Positions 4,742-64,000 of a stretch of 64,000 nt of DNA are shown here, piece after piece; the first letter of the stretch is position 1; every line of letters starts with the position of its first letter. The notes below the pieces were generated by a model. It saw nothing but the letters and a program-made list of their open reading frames with translations. It was not told the origin of the DNA and searched no databases. Both the position numbers and the translations under genes were made by a program. Source of the stretch: an uncultured Gammaproteobacteria bacterium (GTDB lineage: Bacteria; Patescibacteriota; Microgenomatia; Levybacterales; GWA1-39-11); the NCBI GenBank assembly GCA_964406795.1, contig CAYOTA010000005.1, forward strand, positions 14,235-78,234, in the 5' to 3' direction.

Positions 4742-4816
4742 TGGTGGAGCCGACAGGATTCGAACCTGTGGCCAGGTGTGTATAAGACACCTGCTCTACC
4801 GCTGAGCTACGGCTCC
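4742..4816 (-). tRNA. tRNA-Ile with UAU anticodon (reads AUA)
   Basis: Reverse complement GGAGCCG-TA-GCTC-AGCGGTAGAGC-A-GGTGT-CTTATAC-ACACC-TGGCC-ACAGG-TTCGAAT-CCTGT-CGGCTCC-A-CCA gives a full cloverleaf with anticodon loop CUUAUAC. Confidence 0.8.
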
Positions 4817-11541: not shown

Positions 11542-12279
11542 TTAAATTTCTCTTGCAAAGGTCACACCATATACCTCCCGTGCTCCTGCACGCTTTAACA
11601 CCTTTGCACATTCCCGCAGGGTTGCGCATGAGGTAGCCAAATCGTCTACCAGTAACACTGTTTTTCCTTTTAGAAAATCTCTATCCTTTTGATATATTTC
11701 GAATGCATCTTTCACATTTTGTATTCGTGAAATCTTATCCAATTTAAATTGCGGATTTGTATGTCTAATTCTAAACAAAATTTTGTTATTTAATTCCAAA
11801 TTGAATTCTTGCGCCAGGGCTTGCGCTAAAAGCTCCGCCTGGTTATAGCCGCGTTTTCTCAGCTTCTTAGAAGACAGGGGTATTGACATGACTATAGGAT
11901 GTTGAGAGAGGAGTGGTATAAAAACTTCACTTTGGGATATCATTTCAGTAAATAATTTACCCATGGTGTCTTTCAAATTAGAGGTATATGGTTCATATTT
12001 GAAGCTAAACACTAACCGTTTCACAACACCCTTGTACACTACCCCGCACGAAAGACCGTCCAAACCGTAAGGGGTTTTGCAACCAGGGTGCGTTTTGCCT
12101 ATAACAGATCTTTTCATGCACACCGGGCAAACATATTCCTCAAACGGTTTTATGCTAGATAAACAGTTTGCGCATACATATGTCCCAAATTTTTTGCACC
12201 CCACGCACCGTTTTGGGAATATAATATCAAGAATGAAACTCACAATTTCATTATGTACCCTACTTCCCTTTTTATTCAA
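11542..12279 (-). CDS. comFC: ComF/GntX-family phosphoribosyltransferase (ComFC-like)
   Basis: N-terminal double zinc ribbon CVGCKKF...CANC...CPVC...HPGC. C-terminal PRTase motif VLLVDDLATSCATL. Confidence 0.7.
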   Translation of the reverse strand: MNKKGSRVHNEIVSFILDIIFPKRCVGCKKFGTYVCANCLSSIKPFEEYVCPVCMKRSVIGKTHPGCKTPYGLDGLSCGVVYKGVVKRLVFSFKYEPYTSNLKDTMGKLFTEMISQSEVFIPLLSQHPIVMSIPLSSKKLRKRGYNQAELLAQALAQEFNLELNNKILFRIRHTNPQFKLDKISRIQNVKDAFEIYQKDRDFLKGKTVLLVDDLATSCATLRECAKVLKRAGAREVYGVTFAREI

Positions 12280-15016: not shown

Positions 15017-15427
15017 GATAATTGTTGTTGTCATTCTGACCATACTATAACTAGGGAAGAATCCAACTGTGAACGAGATCCTTCGCATTGCTCAGGATGA
15101 CATCTTTAAAATAAAAAAACCTCCCCGATAACTCGAGAAGGCCATAAAAAAAGAGCTTGCTCGAGCGAAAAAAAATTACATAGTTTTCTGAGTTTAATCC
15201 TACTTTGCTCAAAGCTTCGTAGAATTCTCCGTAGCCTTTGGCGTAGGAGAACAGTGGCGGCACCCTCATGGACTCTCACCATGATTACCTATGTAATTCC
15301 CTAAGATATATGAATCAAAAACCAAGTTCTTAATTCCTAATTCATACCTCTTAATTCATTCCTAACACTCTGCGTGTCCGCAACTGTAAGATCGCTTTCG
15401 CTAACCTTGCTCCTGGCTCATGCATCA

Positions 15428-18400
15428 TTAACACTCCGCATGACCACAAGAGTAACATTTGCTACATCCTTCTTCATGAACAAAGCTTGCTACTCCACAC
15501 TGAGGGCATACATCAGCATGTGAGTGTGTCTCAACATTTGGTTCTGCTTCCAGTGGAAGTTGTTCTACCTGCGTAGGCTGTTCTAGTACGGCCTGTTTTT
15601 GTCCATATACATCAGCCAAAGATTGCGGCATAGTTCCGTGAGTTCCGGCGCCATTAGACATACTAATTGCGGCGGCTCCATTAGACGCTCCGTTTGTAGC
15701 AGCACCATTGAGAGCTGGGGCGTCTGTAACAGGTACAGAAACAGTAGTTGAAGTATCAAGCGCAGGAAGCGCATCTGCCTGAATAGGCGCTTTTGGAGCG
15801 TCTACCACGCGTCCGTTTACTTTAAAGCTAAATTCCTCAGCAAACACTTTTGCCATAGCATCCGGCACTGAGCGCACCCTATTTTGTCCAAATCCAATGG
15901 ATCTCATACCCCCTATTCCTGATAGTTGAGCTATTATTTGTCTCACTCTCTCGCGTGGCTCCACAGGGCTTTGTAGTCTCAGCGTTAATGAAATAATTCG
16001 TCCCAAAGCGTCAGCCATAGCGGCCACGTCAGATCCTAACTTTCCAATAGTCACAAATACTTCAAACGGATTACCGTTATCATCACTGTTAATCGTTATA
16101 AACGCGTCCCCAAGTGGAGTCTGAGTTTTATAGGTTAAACCGCGCATAACAACAGGGCGGCGTAAAATAGGTGCTGCTTTTTGTACTACTGGTTCTTCTT
16201 TCTTTTCCTCTTTCTTTTCTTCACGTTGCAAAACTCCCACGCGTGATCCGTCTCTCATGTAGGTAATCCCCTTCATGCCCATGTCGTAAGCTGCCATATA
16301 TAAATCTTTTACATCGTCAACGGTGTGGTTATTAGGCGCATTTACTGTTTTGGAGATTGATGAGTCTATATAGCCCTGTGCAATTGCCTGAACTTTTGCG
16401 TGATCCATTGGAGTTAAGTCGTTTGCTGATACAAAATAGTCTGGGCGCTTCTCGTCAGGATTTTGGCGTCTCCACTCGTCATAAAGTGGGTGATACAATT
16501 TGTCAATTCCTAAACGTGACTTTCTGATAAATTCAAATTCATAAACCGGCTCAATTCCTGAAGTAGTATTTGCAAGCAATGAGGTGGTTCCTGTAGGCGC
16601 AATTGTTAAGAGCACTGCATTTCTAATTCCATCCTTTTCAATTTTTTCGCGGATTGCCTTTGGAAGTGCTTTAATGTGGTGCCCCTGTAGGTATTTTTCA
16701 GCTTCAAATTTAGGGAATGCGCCTTTTTCTTTTGCAATATCAGATGACGCAATATATGCATTGTCACGCAAAGTTTTAAATATTTTTTCAATAGTTGGGA
16801 GAGATTCTTCTGCTCCGTAACGCAGCTTCATCATAATAAGCGCGTCTCCCAGTCCCATGATCCCAAGACCGGTGCGTCGTATATCTTTTGCGCATTGCTC
16901 GTTTTCTTTGAGAAAATAATAAGTAGAATCTATAACATTATCTAAAAATCTGGTTGCAATCTTAACATCTGTACCAAATGAATCATAGTCAAATTTTCCG
17001 TCTTTCACATATGCCGTTAAGTTCATGGCACCCAAGTTACATACGGCCCATGCTGATAATGGCTGTTCTCCGCAATTATGGACATAAAACCCATTTGCAT
17101 CAAACGCATGAAGACCTGGAATCTGTGCATCATATACATCTTCTACTCCATCCTGAGAAATTGAGCTCACCGTTACCATAAATTTTTCTCGATTATATGA
17201 TCTTTTATAAGATTTCAGCAGCATTTCAAGTTTTTCTTTCTTGCTTGAATCCATGAATCCAATAAGATTCTTAAACCAAAGCATATTCTCGCCTGATATC
17301 GATAACTCGTGTTGAGCTTTTATTTTGTAGTCTTTCTTTCCACCCTTTCCATCCGGAAGCACAGATATTCCTTCTACTCTTCTATTAAGATATATCTTCG
17401 AGACAACTCCAAACCGAAGAAGAATTCTTTGTACAGCTTCTAGCAATTTTTTATCTGACTGGGCAAGCCTTACACTAACTCCCTTCTGCTGAGAGCCTTG
17501 GACACTCCCATCAGCATCAAATAACCCCTGAAGTAAACCTTTTGAAAATTCACTTGATGCCTGTTCCATACTAGGAGTTATATACTTTTTATTTCTTTCC
17601 ATACCAAGTTCTAAAGCGAGAGTACGAAGGTACGAGAATGCAAGACGGTGTTCTGCTCGCTGAGGAACTTCCATCCAGCCCGTAAAGTCACTTCGATGGG
17701 GCATTGACTGAGAGAGAGAATAGGCATGATTCATAACGCTCTGTGCTCCTTTATTATTTGTTTCCCAAACAGACAGGACTGCTTTATCCTCTTTCAGCGT
17801 ACCATCTCCAACAAGAAGGCCCATTAAATAACCTTCCCCGTAGGTATGCTTACCGTTCCAGAAGACTTTTTCAGAGTGATTATTAATGGAAATCTTGTCT
17901 CCTATTCTTAGCTGGCCAGCTTTTTCCCAAACATAAGAAGCCTTATAACGAGTATGTTTTTCAACTTTTTGAACAGGGTGGTCTTCTGTTAGACGAAGCG
18001 CATACCCTTCCTTTGTAGTAACTGATAATAACTGCTTTGTTCCGGTTTTGAAAAATCCAAGATCTGAAGAAGGAATATCTTTTCCATTCACCCGAGCAAT
18101 GAACTGAACTCCTACAAGGTCTCTAACTTGACGTGGACCTTGCTTTGTGTGAATCCATGCATCTGCTGGTAGGCAAGGGTTAGTTGCAATCAGTTTTTCA
18201 AAATAATGAGTGTTAGATCTTTTGTTAGAGCGCTCCAAGAAGTGAAGTCCTGGCTCAGCCGATCTCCATGCAGCGGTACAAATCATATCCCAAAGATATG
18301 ACGCTTTTATAACCTTGTGAACTTTTACTCGTCCCCCCGCCTTTTTCCAGCCAATCATATCTCCATCCCAAATCTCATCGTACTTTGGGTCATCCAGATC

Positions 18401-19054
18401 CGGGTAGCACAGCTCCCAATCCCCATTATTCTTAACTGCTTCCATGAATGCGTCAGACAAACACACTGAAAGGTTTGCGCCATTAATGCGGGTTAAATCC
18501 TGCTTTACTGTTATGAATTCTTCTACATCTGGATGCCAATCGTGAAGCATAAGCATCAAAGCACCGCGACGTGATCCACCCTGCTGCACTATGTCTTTTG
18601 TGGCAAGAGAATATAATTCTGCCCAGTTAATAGGGCCTGAAGAAAATCCATTTACTTTTTTGACGCGTGCGCCGCGTGGTCGTAAAGACGACAAATTAAG
18701 CCCTACTCCGCCTCCACGAGCCATTATCTCAATCATTGACTTAAGATTATCTAGAATTCCGTCTCTACTGTCTTTTGGGGATGGGATAACAAAACAATTA
18801 TAATAGGTAACGTCATAATTAGTGCCGGCTCCTGCAAAAATACGTCCTCCTGGCAAGAACTTGAAGTCCTTCATGACTTCATAGAATTTTTTCCTCCATT
18901 CAGCTCTCGTCTCTTTGGTTTCAACTTCTGCAATTCCGCGCGCAACTCTCTTCCACATTTCTTCTGGGGTTTTTTCCACAGGATTTCCCGCCTCATCCTT
19001 TAAAGAATAGCGATCCAAAAATACTTTTTCTGAGAGTCCTGTTAATTGTGTCAT
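15428..19054 (-). CDS. nrdJ: Class II (adenosylcobalamin-dependent) ribonucleotide reductase NrdJ, interrupted by an in-frame intein
   Basis: N-terminal RNR motifs FLPGGRIFAGAG and NCFVIP. The active-site motif NPCGE is split as ATNP-[intein]-CGEQPL. C-terminal Cys cluster CPQCG...CSKCYSCGHAEC. Confidence 0.85.
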   Translation of the reverse strand: MTQLTGLSEKVFLDRYSLKDEAGNPVEKTPEEMWKRVARGIAEVETKETRAEWRKKFYEVMKDFKFLPGGRIFAGAGTNYDVTYYNCFVIPSPKDSRDGILDNLKSMIEIMARGGGVGLNLSSLRPRGARVKKVNGFSSGPINWAELYSLATKDIVQQGGSRRGALMLMLHDWHPDVEEFITVKQDLTRINGANLSVCLSDAFMEAVKNNGDWELCYPDLDDPKYDEIWDGDMIGWKKAGGRVKVHKVIKASYLWDMICTAAWRSAEPGLHFLERSNKRSNTHYFEKLIATNPCLPADAWIHTKQGPRQVRDLVGVQFIARVNGKDIPSSDLGFFKTGTKQLLSVTTKEGYALRLTEDHPVQKVEKHTRYKASYVWEKAGQLRIGDKISINNHSEKVFWNGKHTYGEGYLMGLLVGDGTLKEDKAVLSVWETNNKGAQSVMNHAYSLSQSMPHRSDFTGWMEVPQRAEHRLAFSYLRTLALELGMERNKKYITPSMEQASSEFSKGLLQGLFDADGSVQGSQQKGVSVRLAQSDKKLLEAVQRILLRFGVVSKIYLNRRVEGISVLPDGKGGKKDYKIKAQHELSISGENMLWFKNLIGFMDSSKKEKLEMLLKSYKRSYNREKFMVTVSSISQDGVEDVYDAQIPGLHAFDANGFYVHNCGEQPLSAWAVCNLGAMNLTAYVKDGKFDYDSFGTDVKIATRFLDNVIDSTYYFLKENEQCAKDIRRTGLGIMGLGDALIMMKLRYGAEESLPTIEKIFKTLRDNAYIASSDIAKEKGAFPKFEAEKYLQGHHIKALPKAIREKIEKDGIRNAVLLTIAPTGTTSLLANTTSGIEPVYEFEFIRKSRLGIDKLYHPLYDEWRRQNPDEKRPDYFVSANDLTPMDHAKVQAIAQGYIDSSISKTVNAPNNHTVDDVKDLYMAAYDMGMKGITYMRDGSRVGVLQREEKKEEKKEEPVVQKAAPILRRPVVMRGLTYKTQTPLGDAFITINSDDNGNPFEVFVTIGKLGSDVAAMADALGRIISLTLRLQSPVEPRERVRQIIAQLSGIGGMRSIGFGQNRVRSVPDAMAKVFAEEFSFKVNGRVVDAPKAPIQADALPALDTSTTVSVPVTDAPALNGAATNGASNGAAAISMSNGAGTHGTMPQSLADVYGQKQAVLEQPTQVEQLPLEAEPNVETHSHADVCPQCGVASFVHEEGCSKCYSCGHAEC
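17075..18175 (-). other. Intein (367 aa) with LAGLIDADG homing-endonuclease domain inside nrdJ
   Basis: It begins CLPADAWIHT immediately after ATNP and ends FYVHN immediately before CGEQPL. The LAGLIDADG blocks are LMGLLVGDGTL and LLQGLFDADGSV. The coordinates were verified against the codons. Confidence 0.8.
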
Positions 19055-19126: not shown

Positions 19127-19576
19127 TTACTTTATTAATTTCTGTAATTCTTTTTGAAAATCTTCCAAATCTACAAATTGTCTAAATACGCTTGAGAATC
19201 TGATATACGCTACTTTATCTATCTTTTTTAGCTTTTGTGCAACCAGACCTCCTATTTTTTTACTTTCTATCTCAACGCTCTCTCCACCCCGCAACTCCAT
19301 TTCTATTTCGTCCACAATACGCGTTATATCGAGTACTGTCACTGAAGTCTTTTGCGTTGCTGTTGTCATTCCCCGTTGTAGTTTGTGTCTATCAAATTGT
19401 TCCCGTTTTCCGTCTTTTTTTAGAACTATAAGCGGTACGTTTTCAATCCGTTCATATGTCGTAAATCGTTTCTGACACTTTGAACAAGTACGTCTCCTTC
19501 TTATGTTAGCTCCGTCATCCCCGACTCGTGTTTCTACAACTTCCGTTTCATTCCCTTTGCAGTATGGACAATGCAT
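19127..19576 (-). CDS. nrdR: Transcriptional repressor NrdR
   Basis: N-terminus MHCPYCKGNETEVVETRVGDDGANIRRRRTCSKCQKRFTTYERIE (zinc ribbon plus ATP-cone). Confidence 0.9.
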   Translation of the reverse strand: MHCPYCKGNETEVVETRVGDDGANIRRRRTCSKCQKRFTTYERIENVPLIVLKKDGKREQFDRHKLQRGMTTATQKTSVTVLDITRIVDEIEMELRGGESVEIESKKIGGLVAQKLKKIDKVAYIRFSSVFRQFVDLEDFQKELQKLIK

Positions 19577-55830: not shown

Positions 55831-56011
55831 GTCCTCGCCGTTGTGATAGAAAGCTTAGAACCGGGTACAAATACCTTGAGGGTCATTTAGGCGATTTTCT
55901 ATATTACAGGATATGTTTGGGATACTTGCGATTCCTAGTTGTTTTTTTAGCAAGCCACATAGGGCTAATCGAGCATAGGAGATGGGTCTTGGAGCAACCC
56001 AAGGCTTTCTG

Positions 56012-56095
56012 CGGAGGAGGCGGGATTTGAACCCGCGTAAGTTTTCACTTGCACGCTTTCCAAGCGTGTGCCATAGGCCACTAGGCGACTCCTCC
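56012..56095 (-). tRNA. tRNA-Ser (GGA), class II
   Basis: Minus strand GGAGGAG-TC-GCC-...-CACGC-TTGGAAA-GCGTG-long variable arm-GCGGG-TTCAAAT-CCCGC-CTCCTCC-G. Anticodon GGA. Confidence 0.8.
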
Positions 56096-56162
56096 AGTTT
56101 TGTTTAATGTGGCCTGCCTTTTTACTTTGCAAAAAGATAAGGCCACTAGGCGACTCCTCCAG
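56075..56162. repeat. 23-nt perfect direct repeat AGGCCACTAGGCGACTCCTCCAG (56075-56097 and 56140-56162) duplicating the 5' end of tRNA-Ser(GGA)
   Basis: Read directly in the sequence. The second copy abuts the stop of the Nudix gene. Confidence 0.7.
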
Positions 56163-56163
56163 A

Positions 56164-56604
56164 TTAAGCTTGTGCAAGCTTTTCGATAATGGGTCGAGCT
56201 TCTGTGAACACATCTTTATCTGATCTATAAGTAAGACGACCCATAACTTGATCCGGTGGTAGCCATTCTACGGCTTCCATTTCGTGGTCGTGTTGAGTTA
56301 TATCTCCTCCGGTAAATTTCATGATGTAGTAATATACGGTCTTTTTCCTTTTTTCGTTATCCATAACATACCAGTAAGTAATTGGGGTTAATTCGTGAAT
56401 AATTTCTCCCTCAGCTCCTGTTTCTTCTTTTACTTCACGCACGGCTGTATCCTTTTTGTCTTCCCCTTTTAGATGTTCTTTGTCTCCAATAAGTCCTTTA
56501 GGAAAAACCCATCCGTGGTGATACGAATGTTGTGACACTAAAACAAATATCGAATTGTCTTCGACTTTGAAAACTACTCCACCAGCTGAAAATTCAAGTC
56601 TCAT
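56164..56604 (-). CDS. Nudix hydrolase
   Basis: Start trimmed to MRLEFSAGGVV because the longer ORF overlaps tRNA genes. Nudix box GEDKKDTAVREVKEETGAEG. Confidence 0.7.
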   Translation of the reverse strand: MRLEFSAGGVVFKVEDNSIFVLVSQHSYHHGWVFPKGLIGDKEHLKGEDKKDTAVREVKEETGAEGEIIHELTPITYWYVMDNEKRKKTVYYYIMKFTGGDITQHDHEMEAVEWLPPDQVMGRLTYRSDKDVFTEARPIIEKLAQA

Positions 56605-56664
56605 AAATATTTTTGTAAGCTGTACTTCGTCCCTCAGTACCAGGTTTTCGGAATACCTCAAAAC

Positions 56665-56739
56665 TGGCGCTCTCGGTGGGAATCGAACCCGCATCAGAGG
56701 ATCCGGAATCCCCCGTTCTATCCGTTGAACTACGAGAGC
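56665..56739 (-). tRNA. tRNA-Arg (CCG)
   Basis: Minus strand GCTCTCG...GGGGA-TTCCGGA-TCCTC...GCGGG-TTCGATT-CCCAC-CGAGAGC-G-CCA. Confidence 0.8.
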
Positions 56740-56748
56740 ATAGTTCTG

Positions 56749-56833
56749 CGGAGGGTACAGGATTCGAACCTGTGAAGGACTTGCGCCCTCGAGTTTTCGA
56801 AACTCGTGCAATTGGCCGCTATGCGAACCCTCC
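56749..56833 (-). tRNA. tRNA-Ser (CGA), class II
   Basis: Minus strand GGAGGGT...CGAGT-TTCGAAA-ACTCG-long variable arm-ACAGG-TTCGAAT-CCTGT-ACCCTCC-G. Confidence 0.75.
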
Positions 56834-56902
56834 CAGGTTTCAATCCATGCGCCGCATTTGAGTTTATCGAAAACGCGGTGCCAGGTTCAGGCAAGCTGAA
56901 AT

Positions 56903-56978
56903 TGGCGCACCCGAGTGGGGTCGAACCACCAACCGCAAGATCCGCAATCTTGTACTCTATCCATTGAGCTACGGGTGC
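56903..56978 (-). tRNA. tRNA-Arg (GCG)
   Basis: Minus strand GCACCCG-TA-GCTC-AATGGAT-AGAGT-A-CAAGA-TTGCGGA-TCTTG-CGGTT-GGTGG-TTCGACC-CCACT-CGGGTGC-G-CCA. Confidence 0.8.
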
Positions 56979-59280: not shown

Positions 59281-59673
59281 GATAGTGTGCTTGCAGTGAG
59301 CGAAGCGAATCTGTTGCGGGGCAAGGAATCGCACCTTGTCTAGAAGATTATGCTTGTTGTTAATCTCCCATTACTGAAAGTATCGGACTATATCATATTC
59401 CAATTAGCTTGGAACTCCAGCGTATAGTCTCTACGGGGTTCAGTTAGATTAAACATCTAAGAGAACTTCCCTCGGTATTGCCCTTTCTGCTTAGTTTTGA
59501 ATTCGGGTTTCACCGATACAGCTAGATTCATTCATCAATGTTACCATTGCGACGGCCCAATTGAGCCTTCTGTGCAGCTTTACACTACCCCGCGCGTCCT
59601 GATCATAATAGCATGTACCTATGTGTAAGTCAATTCGCACAAAATATACAGTTAATATTTTCCTATTGACGAG
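59281..59673 (-). ncRNA. Candidate group-I-intron-like structured RNA core (R and S elements) or remnant
   Basis: Minus strand has GTAGAGACTATACG (R-like, consensus CAGAGACTACACG) at plus 59421-59434. About 25 nt downstream it has TGATATAGTCCG (S-like, consensus AAGATATAGTCC) at plus 59384-59395. Confidence 0.35.
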
Positions 59674-60390
59674 GTGCGGTTATTATTCAATAATAAAAAT
59701 GTGTCATATTCAAGCGTTAAAAAAGATGAGGTAAGGAAGCTTAGGAGAGCGGGTATGAGCTTGAATCACATAGAAAAAACCTCCAATGTGCCTAAATCCA
59801 CTATAAGAGAATGGATAAAGGATATTTCCTTAAACCCAGAACAAACTCAGGTGTTGCTTGAAGGCGCACTCATTGCTCTTCAGAATGGTAGAAAAGTTGC
59901 GCAAGAAAATAAACGCAAAAAAAGAAGTAAAAAAGAAGAAGAATTACACATTCAAGGAGTAGCCGAGATAGGTGCGCTAAATAAACGTGAATTGTTTATC
60001 GCAGGGATCGCTTTATATTGGGCAGAAGGATTTAAGAATAGACATGAAAAAAGGTTGGGTTTCTGCAACTCTGATCCTAAAATGATAAAATTTTATCTTT
60101 ATTGGTTACGTAGTGTATTAGGCGTTGACGCTCTATATATCACTGCTCGTTTAACCATAAATTCTGCACATAAAGATCGTGAAGAAAAAATTCTTGAATA
60201 TTGGCGAAATGTAACTGAATTGCCCGATTCAAGTTTCACAAAGACTTTTTATCAAACCGTTATTTCAGTCAAGCAATTTGAAAATAGAGATTTGTATAAT
60301 GGCGTGCTCCGCCTTCATGTAAAAGAAAGTTTGGACACCTTACTTAAAATGAGAGGATGGATCGAGGGATTAGGAAGTATTCAAAGATGA
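59674..60390 (+). CDS. HTH plus LAGLIDADG-like homing-endonuclease-family protein (paralog 2)
   Basis: HTH MSLNHIEKTSNVPKSTIREW. LAGLIDADG-like ELFIAGIALYWAEGFK. FCNSDPKMIKF is shared with paralog 1. The true start may be a GTG a few codons in. Confidence 0.55.
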   Translation: MRLLFNNKNVSYSSVKKDEVRKLRRAGMSLNHIEKTSNVPKSTIREWIKDISLNPEQTQVLLEGALIALQNGRKVAQENKRKKRSKKEEELHIQGVAEIGALNKRELFIAGIALYWAEGFKNRHEKRLGFCNSDPKMIKFYLYWLRSVLGVDALYITARLTINSAHKDREEKILEYWRNVTELPDSSFTKTFYQTVISVKQFENRDLYNGVLRLHVKESLDTLLKMRGWIEGLGSIQR

Positions 60391-61580: not shown

Positions 61581-61874
61581 AAATTGACATGTAAGAAAAA
61601 CAGGAGTATAGTACGTATTGAGGAGAGGCTTACGAAAGAATTTACGAGCGTGTAGATCCCGCTAAGCGGGAAAACGAGGAAGAAGGGTCCCGATTTAATC
61701 GGGACAATCGGACCTCCGATTAAATCGGAGAGTATTTGCGGAAACCTTCAGGTTGTGAATGTCAACCTTAATAGTTTTTTCAAACCTACTAGTAATAGTA
61801 GACACAAAGAAAAACTTATGCATTTTAAGCCCCATTATTCTCCTGAAGTAATTTTTTATATAACAACATAATCT
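61581..61874 (+). promoter_or_regulatory. Structured glmS 5' leader (candidate glmS ribozyme/riboswitch)
   Basis: Three consecutive hairpins CCCGCtaaGCGGG, CCCGAtttaaTCGGG and CTCCGAttaaaTCGGAG, plus an ACGAGGAAGAAGGG segment, upstream of glmS. Confidence 0.3.
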
Positions 61875-63635
61875 ATGTGTGGAATTTTTGGTTATATTGG
61901 ACACAAACATAACGCACCTGAAGTAATTCTGGAAGGTCTTTCTGTGCTTGAATACCGTGGGTATGATTCATGGGGCATAGCCATTAAAGACAAAGATGTA
62001 CTTGCCGTGGATAAACACGTAGGAAAAATTGGCAATGCCAAAACCTCTTTACCGGCTGCTACTATAGGGATTGGGCACACAAGATGGGCAACTCATGGAG
62101 GGGTAACTTGCGAAAACGCACATCCTCATCTTGACTGTACTAAAAGAATTGCAGTGGTGCACAATGGTATCGTGGAAAACTATAAGTCATTAAAAAACAT
62201 ACTTATTGAATCTGGACACACATTCTTATCAGATACTGACTCAGAAGTTATAGCCCATCTTATAGAAGAAAACCTTAAAAAAGATGAACTTTTTGAGGCA
62301 GTAAGAAGTGCATTTAACGCGTGTCAGGGGTTGTCAGCCATTGTTGTCCTGGACACAAAAAATGATGAGATTGTGGCAGCCAAAACCGGCTCACCGCTTA
62401 TTGTAGGTTTAGGAAATCAAGAATTTTTTATAGCCTCTGATATTTCAGCATTAGCACCTCATATTAAAGAGGCACTATACATAAAAGACCATGAGATGGT
62501 AGTGTTATCCCGCAACCACGTAAAGCTATATTCTCTTTTGACGGGTCAGGAGATTTCAGCCCAGGTGGAAGCAGTTGACTATGTGGTGGGTGACGACTCA
62601 ATGGGCTCATACAGCCATTTTATGATGAAAGAAATAGTGGAGCAGCCGGAAGTCTTACTGCGATCCGTAACCGATTTACCTGAGATTGAAAAATTGGCCA
62701 GTCTTATTAAAAGTAAACAGAAAACATTCTTTATTGCAGCGGGTACAGCACATCACGCGGCCTTAACTGGAGTACAAATGCTATCCCAACTAGCTTCAAT
62801 TTCTGTACGTACGCTGGTAGCCTCAGAATTTGCATATATAGAGTCTGAAATAGACTCACATAGTTTAATTGTTGCTTTTTCCCAAAGTGGGGAAACAATT
62901 GACGTTATAGAGCCGTTAAGCAGGGCTCACGAAAAAGGCGCTGTTATCGCAAGCATTGTAAATGCACCAGGTTCAACTATACAGCGCATGAGCGATGTGT
63001 CAATTTTGCTTCACGCGGGCCCTGAAAAATCAGTTGCATCCACCAAAGCATATACAGCAAAGTTGGGCGTTTTGCTTTGTCTCGTGTATATGCTTGCACA
63101 AAAAAAAGATGCCGCTGAATTACTAACGAAAATAGCGCAAGAAGAAAATAGAATACTTTTGCCTGAAAATACGGTAAAAATTCAACAATTAGCGCACAGG
63201 TTAAAAAACAATGATTTTATGTTTGCAATTGGACGGGGCATGTCATATCCTTCAGCGCTTGAAGCAGCACTCAAGATAAAAGAAGTATCCTACACTCATA
63301 TAGAAGGACTTCCTGGGGGAGAATTAAAACACGGATCAATTGCGTTAATTGAAAAAGGCACACCTTGTATTGTTTTTGCGCCTCACGATGATACATTTGC
63401 GTCTATTATTTCAAATGCGATGGAGATTAAAGCTCGCGGAGGGATGATTGTAGGCATAAGTCCTAAAAATTCAGAAGTATTTGATGAATATATAGAGGTA
63501 GCAGATTTAGGAATCGGAAGTATCTTGGCTCAGGTTTTGCCAGTACAGTTGTTAGCATATTACTTGGCACTAGAAAAAGGAGTTACTGACCCGGATAAGC
63601 CTCGGAATTTAGCCAAAAGCGTTACAGTTAAGTAA
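61875..63635 (+). CDS. glmS: Glutamine--fructose-6-phosphate aminotransferase GlmS
   Basis: N-terminal MCGIFGYIG (Cys2 nucleophile), two SIS domains, C-terminal ...AKSVTVK. Confidence 0.9.
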   Translation: MCGIFGYIGHKHNAPEVILEGLSVLEYRGYDSWGIAIKDKDVLAVDKHVGKIGNAKTSLPAATIGIGHTRWATHGGVTCENAHPHLDCTKRIAVVHNGIVENYKSLKNILIESGHTFLSDTDSEVIAHLIEENLKKDELFEAVRSAFNACQGLSAIVVLDTKNDEIVAAKTGSPLIVGLGNQEFFIASDISALAPHIKEALYIKDHEMVVLSRNHVKLYSLLTGQEISAQVEAVDYVVGDDSMGSYSHFMMKEIVEQPEVLLRSVTDLPEIEKLASLIKSKQKTFFIAAGTAHHAALTGVQMLSQLASISVRTLVASEFAYIESEIDSHSLIVAFSQSGETIDVIEPLSRAHEKGAVIASIVNAPGSTIQRMSDVSILLHAGPEKSVASTKAYTAKLGVLLCLVYMLAQKKDAAELLTKIAQEENRILLPENTVKIQQLAHRLKNNDFMFAIGRGMSYPSALEAALKIKEVSYTHIEGLPGGELKHGSIALIEKGTPCIVFAPHDDTFASIISNAMEIKARGGMIVGISPKNSEVFDEYIEVADLGIGSILAQVLPVQLLAYYLALEKGVTDPDKPRNLAKSVTVK

Positions 63636-63780
63636 TTCTTCGGCTTGCGTCGTTTCACTCCTAAAGCCAAGAAATCTAGCAAAATCTGTTACTGTAAAAT
63701 GATTTCTTGTCTTGCGGTGCTCGGCTCCGCCTGTGCTCCTTAAGCCACGCAACTTGGCAAAGAGTGTGACCGTAAAATAA
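63600..63780 (+). repeat. Three tandem copies of the glmS 3' terminus (PRNLAKSVTVK plus stop) with synonymous codon divergence
   Basis: Native copy at 63600-63635 (TAA). Copy at 63667-63702 (TGA). Copy at 63745-63780 (TAA). All encode PRNLAKSVTVK*. A weaker fourth GTTACTGT motif lies near 63848. Confidence 0.7.
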
Positions 63781-64000
63781 GAACCACTCGGCTTCTCCTC
63801 GGAACCTTGCTTTTTCTCATAGATTCGAAAAAGTAATTTTTTCTTGTCAGGTTACTGTCAAGCGGGTTTTTTAAGCGAGGTAAACAATATATAGTGTGAT
63901 AGGTCACGAGACATCGTTTTTAACGCCAGAAGTGTTTTCCGGACAGGTAAACGCTGAGTTTACCGCTGAATCAAAGTATGCCGGGTGGATTTCAGGCCCT

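Follow-up and report, generated by a model that had tools for sequence, protein, structure and literature searches.

Tandem recoded copies of the glmS coding end in an uncultured Patescibacteria contig and in other bacteria

The coding end of glmS occurs three times in tandem in a 64,000-nucleotide (nt) stretch of contig CAYOTA010000005.1 (assembly GCA_964406795.1), called the window here at its full length: the working end of the gene is followed by two spare ends that specify the same peptide with different codons. Arrays of the same kind recur on metagenome contigs, built from a terminus and hairpins whose paired bases change together, and a similar architecture is found at the ends of nrdJ and trmH. 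We tentatively read the region as a stack of displaced glmS ends, formed by repeated replacement of the terminus with units of terminus plus hairpin, and we put the chance of this somewhat short of even. Full-text literature searches returned no description of tandem recoded gene ends.

Recoded glmS ends in the window and its relatives

The window holds a complete glmS gene preceded by a glmS ribozyme, which confirms both the gene and its direction of transcription, and a protein search returned thousands of GlmS homologs with GATase and SIS domains. The protein ends in ...DPDKPRNLAKSVTVK, with TAA as the stop codon. Its terminal peptide KPRNLAKSVTVK plus stop (12 residues) is found three times, in a repeated tract that starts at a Lys codon:

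61636..61827, + strand: glmS ribozyme in the 5' leader (Rfam RF00234, 49.6 bits against a gathering score of 37)
61875..63635, + strand: complete glmS coding sequence, 586 amino acids (aa), from the list of open reading frames (ORFs); protein 100% identical to P0001
63597..63635, + strand: terminus copy 1, the working glmS end, AAG CCT CGG AAT TTA GCC AAA AGC GTT ACA GTT AAG TAA
63664..63702, + strand: terminus copy 2, a spare in the +1 frame, AAG CCA AGA AAT CTA GCA AAA TCT GTT ACT GTA AAA TGA
63742..63780, + strand: terminus copy 3, a spare in the +1 frame, AAG CCA CGC AAC TTG GCA AAG AGT GTG ACC GTA AAA TAA

An initial annotation of this DNA, made from the letters alone, had described three glmS ends with identical translation, and these are borne out at 63597-63635, 63664-63702 and 63742-63780. 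Its count of ten differing codon positions out of twelve was too low: the leading Lys codon is AAG in all three copies, and each of the 12 positions after it, the stop included, varies in at least one copy, with zero amino-acid changes. Pairwise nucleotide identity is 27-28 of 39, the start-to-start spacing is 67 and 78 nt, and copies 2 and 3 both lie in the +1 frame relative to glmS. A degenerate back-translated pattern matched just these three sites in the 64 kb, even when 3 mismatches were allowed, and matched in 0 of 100 shuffles.

The changes among the window copies include switches of codon family (Ser AGC/TCT/AGT, Arg CGG/AGA/CGC, Leu TTA/CTA/TTG). Selection at the protein level is the sole explanation we see for switches of this kind that leave every residue in place, and each copy therefore appears to have been, or still to be, treated as a genuine protein end, here or in a related genome. 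This supports the earlier suggestion that the extra copies were once real glmS termini. The related upstream flanks reported with it are likewise real, but their likeness is nucleotide similarity between the spacers (repeats D1 and D2), not a translated peptide.

Relatives were chosen by the shared gene order L25 - TPR(-) - glmS, and the comparison bears out the expectation that array length would differ among them, at one, two or three copies (loci from other genomes are given by their L numbers):

Window: reference; 3 copies
L113: GlmS 83% identical to that of the window; 2 copies
L114, L115-118 and L239: GlmS 66-67% identical; 1 copy
L241-L247: GlmS 60% identical; 2 copies, identical in seven samples

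The sequence beyond copy 3 belongs to the ordinary surroundings of the gene:

63781..63896, + strand: native sequence downstream of glmS, leading up to the next gene, conserved in L114 (gaaccact...ttctcatagattcgaaaaagta) and in L113/L115 (ctgtcaggtt.ctgtcaagc)
63897..64000, + strand: start of the next host gene, ORF MIGHETSFLTPEVFSGQVNAEFTAESKYAGWISGP... (MIGHETSF...), which runs off the window; a conserved glmS neighbor in relatives

Directly after copy 3, the sequence (gaaccact...) is homologous to what follows the lone terminus of L114, and the ctgtcaggtt.ctgtcaagc box and the ORF at 63897 are conserved neighbors of glmS in L113 and L115-118; the genes called at the position of the MIGHETSF neighbor in L115-L117 encode 133-139 aa without a Pfam match. 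This synteny with single-copy relatives shows that the window carries two inserted units, 145 bp in all, between the gene body and an end that has kept its native surroundings; copy 3 is most likely the original end of glmS. For the same reason, what had been taken for the side of a large element extending beyond the window edge is host gene, shared with relatives that have one or two copies (L113, L115-L118), and such an element is unsupported.

The two-copy relative L113 further suggests that ends have been exchanged. Spacer 1 of the window is homologous to the first spacer of L113, and window copy 2 finds its best match in L113 copy 1, the working end there (36/39), while window copy 1 best matches L113 copy 2 (34/39). 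Around a homologous spacer, the two loci thus hold the same two termini in reversed order, as an exchange of ends by recombination would predict. L094 and L107 likewise have a 39/39 identical terminus at different array positions.

Recurrence, unit anatomy and neighborhood

Metagenomes were searched with a pattern of two intact back-translated termini 25-55 nt apart, which matched 28 contigs with ~20 distinct arrays of 2-4 copies (start-to-start 62-158 nt, GC 38-68%). These arrays come in K- (lysine-) and E- (glutamate-) terminal versions of the peptide, and the contigs belong to unrelated bacteria. Among 80 Patescibacteria relatives one has a duplicate glmS end (L067), and a scan of 71 relatives in which intactness was not required gave one intact and one decayed duplicate. 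Spacers measure 28-39 nt in the window and 23-119 nt in other arrays; they are homologous from genome to genome and free of gene remnants. Every sequence comes from metagenome-assembled contigs, and a metagenome assembler could in principle have concatenated strain variants of the glmS end. However, different assemblers and projects (JGI, NCBI, ENA, Logan) arrived at the same arrays, which are identical across 5-7 independent samples of one species, and their copies are ~30% diverged with unique, covarying, structured spacers, which strain bubbles do not yield; we consider the chance of such an artefact negligible.

A unit of ~70-90 bp comprises the last 12 codons plus stop, a 12-nt repeat that pairs with the K-P-R-N codons of the same copy, and a GC-rich hairpin. 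In most lysine-type arrays, the first 12 nt of a copy (AAG CCN MGN AAY) return as their reverse complement directly after it, the last copy excepted. This repeat starts at or overlaps the last base of the stop, is matched at 11-12 of 12 positions in many arrays, and follows the codons of its own copy as these vary:

CCT CGC AAT after AAG: post-stop repeat ATTGCGAGTCTT
CCA AGA AAT after AAG: post-stop repeat ATTTCTTGTCTT
CCG CGT AAC after AAG: post-stop repeat GTTACGCGTCTT
CCC AGA AAC after AAG: post-stop repeat GTTTCTGGGCTT
CCA CGC AAT after AAG: post-stop repeat ATTGCGTGTCTT

The resulting stem encloses the remaining eight codons, with the stop at the junction of loop and stem, and beyond the repeat come a GC-rich hairpin starting CTTGCGG, then TAAAG, then the next copy. 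The last copy usually has no repeat; since the last lysine-type copy stands in native context without one, the hairpin-bearing units lie gene-proximal to it. The 12-nt post-stop repeat was found in none of 79 single-copy relatives (best 9/12), and E-type and high-GC arrays keep hairpin 2, mostly without the 12-nt repeat.

Both hairpins are conserved in structure while their sequences change. When 15 units are aligned, pairing in hairpin 1 amounts to 88%; 4 pairs are doubly changed, and pair 4 is a C.U (C.T) mismatch in 11 of the 15. Pairing in hairpin 2 reaches 95-100%, changes there are compensatory, and a U-G (T-G) pair is conserved on the sense strand. The covariation score was reached by 0 of 500 shuffles, and sliding the partners by 1-3 columns lowers pairing to 21-50%.

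The window shows the same modules in differing states of repair:

63636..63663, + strand: spacer 1, in which the K-P-R-N codons recur as a degenerate inverted repeat (ATTCTTCGGCTT, sharing the last base of the stop, 9/12 Watson-Crick), then GCGTCGTTTCACTCC TA
63664..63713, + strand: hairpin 1 of unit 2, arms 63664-63676 (K-P-R-N codons plus C) and 63701-63713; 13 pairs, one mismatch
63714..63741, + strand: hairpin 2 of unit 2, GCGGTGCTCGGCTCCGCCTGTGCTCC plus TT; the conserved CTTGCGG... module shared with arrays of other genomes

The stem of unit 1 is degenerate and folds no better than shuffles (z = -0.36). Hairpin 1 of unit 2 has a minimum-free-energy fold with z = -2.16, its 24-nt loop holding the rest of the copy and its 3' arm part of the stop. 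No inverted repeat follows copy 3, and 63787-63808 resembles hairpin 2 (73%, repeat D2). The whole 250-nt region folds no better than shuffles (z = -0.34), whereas the individual hairpin of unit 2 folds better than they do.

Several known kinds of element were considered for these structures and set aside. An Rfam scan of 63400-64000 at E <= 10 gave no relevant match, the single one (63415-63449) being a chance-level small nucleolar RNA. An intrinsic (Rho-independent) terminator was rejected, as 63300-64000 holds no terminator-like site and hairpin 2 is followed by CCTAAAGCC, with no U-tract. A dispersed palindrome of the repetitive extragenic palindrome (REP) or bacterial interspersed mosaic element (BIME) type is not supported either, the spacer motif being present once in the 64-kb window and, among 112 loci, only inside glmS arrays. 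CTTGCGG as a REP-like or uptake signal was rejected at 11 occurrences against 5.1 expected, with no clear enrichment. A diversity-generating retroelement does not fit differences that fall on all four bases and are synonymous, with no adjoining reverse transcriptase.

The hairpins could instead act at the RNA level, as elements of the 3' untranslated region in 3'-end protection, termination or attenuation, with ribosomes sometimes reading the spares, for example by bypassing from the Lys codon of copy 1 to that of copy 2. The structure does lie on the sense strand, with tolerated G-U pairs and the conserved U-G; the stem begins exactly at the Lys codon and closes around the stop; and the spares look coding-constrained. 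Moreover, a Lys codon (AAG/AAA) precedes every spare, which is partly forced by the search pattern, and E-type arrays have Val-Asp-Lys there, as in the gene. However, the copies lie in frames 0, +1 or +2 without rule, which rules out read-through and frameshifting, and no consistent start codon stands ahead of them; translation of the spares by these routes or as an independent small ORF was rejected on the same two grounds. The loop of 24-27 nt is unlike the compact take-off hairpin of T4 gene 60, bypassing would yield the same protein and so offers no benefit that would keep the hairpins, and there is neither a U-tract terminator nor an Rfam match. We regard an RNA-level role as improbable.

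The genes downstream of the arrays are ordinary host genes (a TrmH/SpoU-like methyltransferase, type IV pilins, UppP, ArgS, IorA, sigma factors), the TrmH/SpoU-like methyltransferase occupying this position in at least 9 distinct Microgenomates-type contigs. No integrase, transposase or Tn7-like genes were found beside 23 distinct arrays of other contigs (22 of them with downstream sequence), and the sole tyrosine recombinase seen is a Xer-like gene 3 kb upstream in L115-117, not adjoining an array. In L090, L092 and L096, small four-helix-bundle proteins of the '23S rRNA intervening sequence protein' type are repeatedly encoded a few kb past the arrays, downstream of the trmH and pilin genes, without an established link to the arrays.

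The initial annotation had ascribed the copies to targeting of the attTn7 or tRNA 3'-end type. In its broader form this explanation makes them attachment-site relics of phages, integrative and conjugative elements or Tn7-like elements that target the glmS 3' end, the element itself lying beyond the window or having been lost. The glmS end is a real target of integrating elements, and many provirus calls end at glmS. On a 37.6-kb viral contig (IMGVR_UViG_3300002059_000031), an identical ~48 bp glmS-end repeat (KPRNLAKSVTVK plus stop) lies near both ends (L082 1-60; L084 1810-1890), at distances of 9 nt and 1.3 kb, and under code 11 the adjoining glmS appears broken into fragments; a prophage may sit in the glmS end of a host whose genetic code is altered, or the assembly may have broken at the repeat. 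On a 93.7-kb contig (IMGVR_UViG_3300005573_000073; L083 2994-3272, - strand), a 92-aa phage ORF ends in DPDKPRNLAKSVTVK plus stop with no other similarity to GlmS, and its end is a candidate phage attachment site (attP) overlapping the ORF. These viral contigs suggest that the glmS end can serve as a phage attachment site.

The arrays themselves look different from such sites. In the window only 67-78 bp separate the copies, free of element remnants, where a classical integrase event would leave the displaced end kilobases away; the downstream neighbor is a conserved host gene, and no integrase or tns genes adjoin the examined arrays. The spacers are homologous structured modules across genomes, which independent deletions of elements would not leave, and the repeats of the viral example are identical rather than recoded. 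Only 3 viral contigs have K-type termini, in 4 stretches that all lack the 12-nt repeat, and the viral E-type matches, which show no tandem copies, fall almost entirely in full glmS genes or at provirus edges; carriage of the units by phages was rejected, as the viral contigs hold no short tandem arrays. For the window locus, synteny largely refutes the integrative-element model, and attachment-site relics are in our estimate decidedly improbable.

The pattern also extends beyond glmS. A scan of all the DNA retrieved (3119 ORFs), looking within 300 nt for the final seven residues and stop in recoded form, gave two matches outside glmS, at nrdJ and trmH, against 0 with shuffled tails. The first is in the window:

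15362..15454, - strand: nrdJ tail YSCGHAEC plus stop (15428-15454) and its recoded copy (15362-15388), with five synonymous codon changes

The copy lies 39 nt past the real stop of nrdJ (class II ribonucleotide reductase, RNR; 15428-19054, - strand), and a hairpin with arms GGTCATGC (15438-15445) and GCATGAGCC (15415-15423) encloses that stop (z = -3.94; 0 of 200 shuffles as stable). The nrdJ of L248, 65% identical over the C-terminal region, has three tails at 637-785 (CYSCGHAEC, DYCGHAEC and CSCDHAEC, each with its stop), the distal two partly decayed; L249 and L250 have a single tail. In L092, the TrmH/SpoU-like gene just downstream of the glmS array ends in MISLAIVLYRTI plus stop (stop 7667), followed ~35-76 nt downstream by the recoded MVSLAIVLFRTI plus stop. 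A glmS-specific agent such as TnsD cannot explain a pattern that includes nrdJ and trmH. GlmS and NrdJ both depend on their extreme C-terminus, the former for its lid and the latter for its redox tail. As to the window NrdJ itself, its 1208 aa include a probable intein, a large insert between conserved RNR blocks that bears LAGLIDADG-like motifs, and NrdR is encoded by the next gene upstream (19127-19576).

Origin and upkeep of the spare ends

Under our preferred reading of repeated terminus replacement, the first array would have arisen by tandem duplication of a terminus and its native 3' hairpin. Arrays would then spread, grow, shrink and be reshuffled through recombination with diverged alleles, for example after DNA uptake, the conserved terminus and hairpin ends being the sole blocks of homology in the otherwise unalignable intergenic region downstream of glmS. 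In such an event the second copy of a donor could pair with the only copy of a recipient and so bring a unit of terminus plus hairpin in front of it. The copy beside the gene would be the working end and the newest, older ends would lie downstream as untranslated, decaying spares, and dedicated mobile-element genes would be unnecessary. Recombination of this kind would account for the recoding, the gene-proximal growth, the distal decay, the variation in copy number, the swapped order and the occurrence at genes with very conserved tails; the direction of growth and the route of recombination are what we infer.

Decay is graded by position where it is seen. L087 keeps copies 1-2 intact, with one replacement in copy 3 and five in copy 4, and L079, a Daviesbacteria contig, has a decayed glmS-end relic (EPRNLAGCVIIR plus stop, ~11754-11792) 13 nt past the real stop, the only decayed one in 71 relatives. 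Decay that rises with distance from the gene in these two loci supports a stack in which older ends have been pushed downstream. The stack itself, as first proposed in the initial annotation, stands to this extent, whereas its attribution to integrative elements is unsupported. In L110 and L112, successive spacers are homologous, and in L110 so is the flank after the last copy; on their sequences, both look like plain tandem duplications of a terminus with its downstream flank.

A number of observations weigh against the replacement model. L089 and L090 share a distinctive spacer, and 14 of 39 nt differ between their second copies, the one replacement falling on the leading Lys codon; all eight differences between window copies and their L113 counterparts are synonymous, while codon identity across glmS between the genomes is 0.57. 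Intact spares point to selection on the spares, or to a quick turnover of ends, as they would be vanishingly unlikely under neutral decay unless ends were replaced often. The arrays are at the same time invariant across 5-7 samples of a species, so that rearrangement must be infrequent on short time scales. Where genomes are ~50% identical in glmS upstream of the Lys codon, their two arms and the start of hairpin 2 are ~100% identical, and the loop codons drift synonymously; this sharp rise in similarity at the Lys codon fits a fixed boundary, set by a site-specific event or a structural constraint, better than ordinary homologous crossovers. The model does not explain well either this boundary or the occurrence of the 12-nt repeat with arrays only. 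A test for recently shared pieces of termini was negative, a position-specific codon-frequency null giving as many near-identical halves because few codons are in use, and the proposal that mosaic termini prove recent horizontal exchange was dropped because they match the chance expectation under that null.

The share of intact spares needs to be read with the search in mind: the metagenome pattern required two intact copies, so that this share is partly a search artefact, and an unbiased tally gives ~5 intact and 3 decayed. The argument that nearly all spares are intact, and hence selected, is weakened accordingly. Between rapid recombinational turnover and selection on the spares, the evidence is mixed.

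A fixed boundary and long-lived intact spares would both be expected of integron-like cassettes. Here a recombinase encoded elsewhere would recognize the shape of the stem and excise and re-insert units at the Lys-Pro boundary of glmS, so that copies alternate as the working end and stay coding. The stems covary as their sequence varies, and the C.U mismatch at pair 4 (11/15) and the sense-strand U-G pair recall attC sites. Spare unit 2 of the window has a better stem than working unit 1; the window and L113, like L094 and L107 (39/39 identical terminus), have their termini in swapped order; spares remain intact through saturated divergence (L089/L090); and similarity has its sharp boundary at the Lys codon. 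Against this, no recombinase lies near any examined array, the arms end in AAT/ATT as often as AAC/GTT and do not conform to the attC core consensus (RYYYAAC / GTTRRRY), and every cassette encodes the same peptide, with no evident pay-off from shuffling. Invariance across samples, the distal decay in L087, the relic in L079, and the E-type and high-GC arrays without the 12-nt repeat also speak against cassettes, which we hold to be unlikely.

A more general possibility is that the arrays represent an undescribed device, 'tail cassettes': heritable stacks of intact, recoded spare ends for genes with an essential C-terminus (glmS, nrdJ, trmH), enclosed in stems and kept coding by selection, whether through shape-directed recombination or through reading by RNA or ribosomes. 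We consider this conceivable yet doubtful.

On the replacement model, gene ends would be repeatedly replaceable, and the replaced ends would pile up as a readable record. If that mechanism holds, it would provide a new route of sequence exchange for essential genes, with no integrase, transposase or phage, in uncultured and probably naturally competent bacteria. If the spares are instead truly selected, untranslated DNA would be read at the protein level, via a new recombination system or a translational event. In practical terms, Tn7-like elements and engineered insertion tools classically land at the glmS end, and 2-4 candidate sites per genome may shift the place of insertion.

The window holds further features apart from these arrays:

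59364-59573, - strand: group I intron (Rfam, 53 bits)
59674-60390, + strand: 238-aa homing endonuclease-like ORF, adjoining the intron; the two lie near a cluster of four tRNAs (56011-56978)
4742-4816, - strand: tRNA-Ile with anticodon TAT (UAU), an uncommon bacterial way of reading AUA

Comparison with known systems

Tn7 and Tn7-like elements share the landmark. Their TnsD protein targets ~36 bp of the glmS coding end via attTn7, and Tn7 inserts downstream of the glmS stop (PMC2918618; PMC11014353). The same end serves as the landmark in the arrays, usable since protein conservation fixes most of its bases, but the window repeats the 39-nt coding end itself and has no tns genes or Tn7-type ends, and nrdJ and trmH are affected too. 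Tn7 makes a 5-bp duplication and does not copy the glmS terminus. In a test for tnsABC plus tnsD/tniQ, transposase-like neighbors were found in none of the 22 distinct arrays with downstream sequence.

Repeated ends of a conserved gene also mark successive insertions of staphylococcal cassette chromosome (SCC) elements, which enter the 3' end of rlmH (orfX) in staphylococci and leave repeated integration-site sequences in composite islands. Unlike the array copies, the SCC repeats are short, near-identical and parted by whole ccr-bearing elements.

The attC sites of integrons are imperfect palindromes of conserved shape, and clusters that lack an integrase exist. The arrays resemble them in conserved structure with covarying sequence (4 doubly changed pairs in a 12-bp stem), in a conserved mismatch, in having no neighboring recombinase and in keeping silent units downstream. 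They differ in that their arms (AAGCCNMGNAAY / RTTNCKNGKCTT) do not have the core RYYYAAC ... GTTRRRY, in that no IntI is present, and in that the cargo is the gene's own last 8 codons, held in the loop and encoding the same peptide.

In the bypass of T4 gene 60, the stop lies within a stem-loop that starts at a codon repeated downstream, and the gap is non-coding and compact. The arrays likewise have a stop within a stem-loop and matched Lys codons, the latter partly forced by the search pattern. However, the 'gap' of an array holds a full working terminus in a loop of 24-27 nt, and its product is complete without bypass.

The nearest known system is the displaced pseudo-terminus of the icd/e14 type, although its defining element and integrase are missing between the copies of the arrays. 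The e14 prophage, like phage 21, integrates in the 3' end of icd in E. coli and leaves a displaced icd pseudo-terminus. There a single event brings in a whole prophage with its integrase and sets the two ends kilobases apart, whereas the arrays stack up to four ends with conserved hairpin modules between them, 67-78 bp apart in the window. What the two have in common is the outcome for the gene: the replacement end is synonymously diverged and the old end is left downstream untranslated, as is seen for the window copies.

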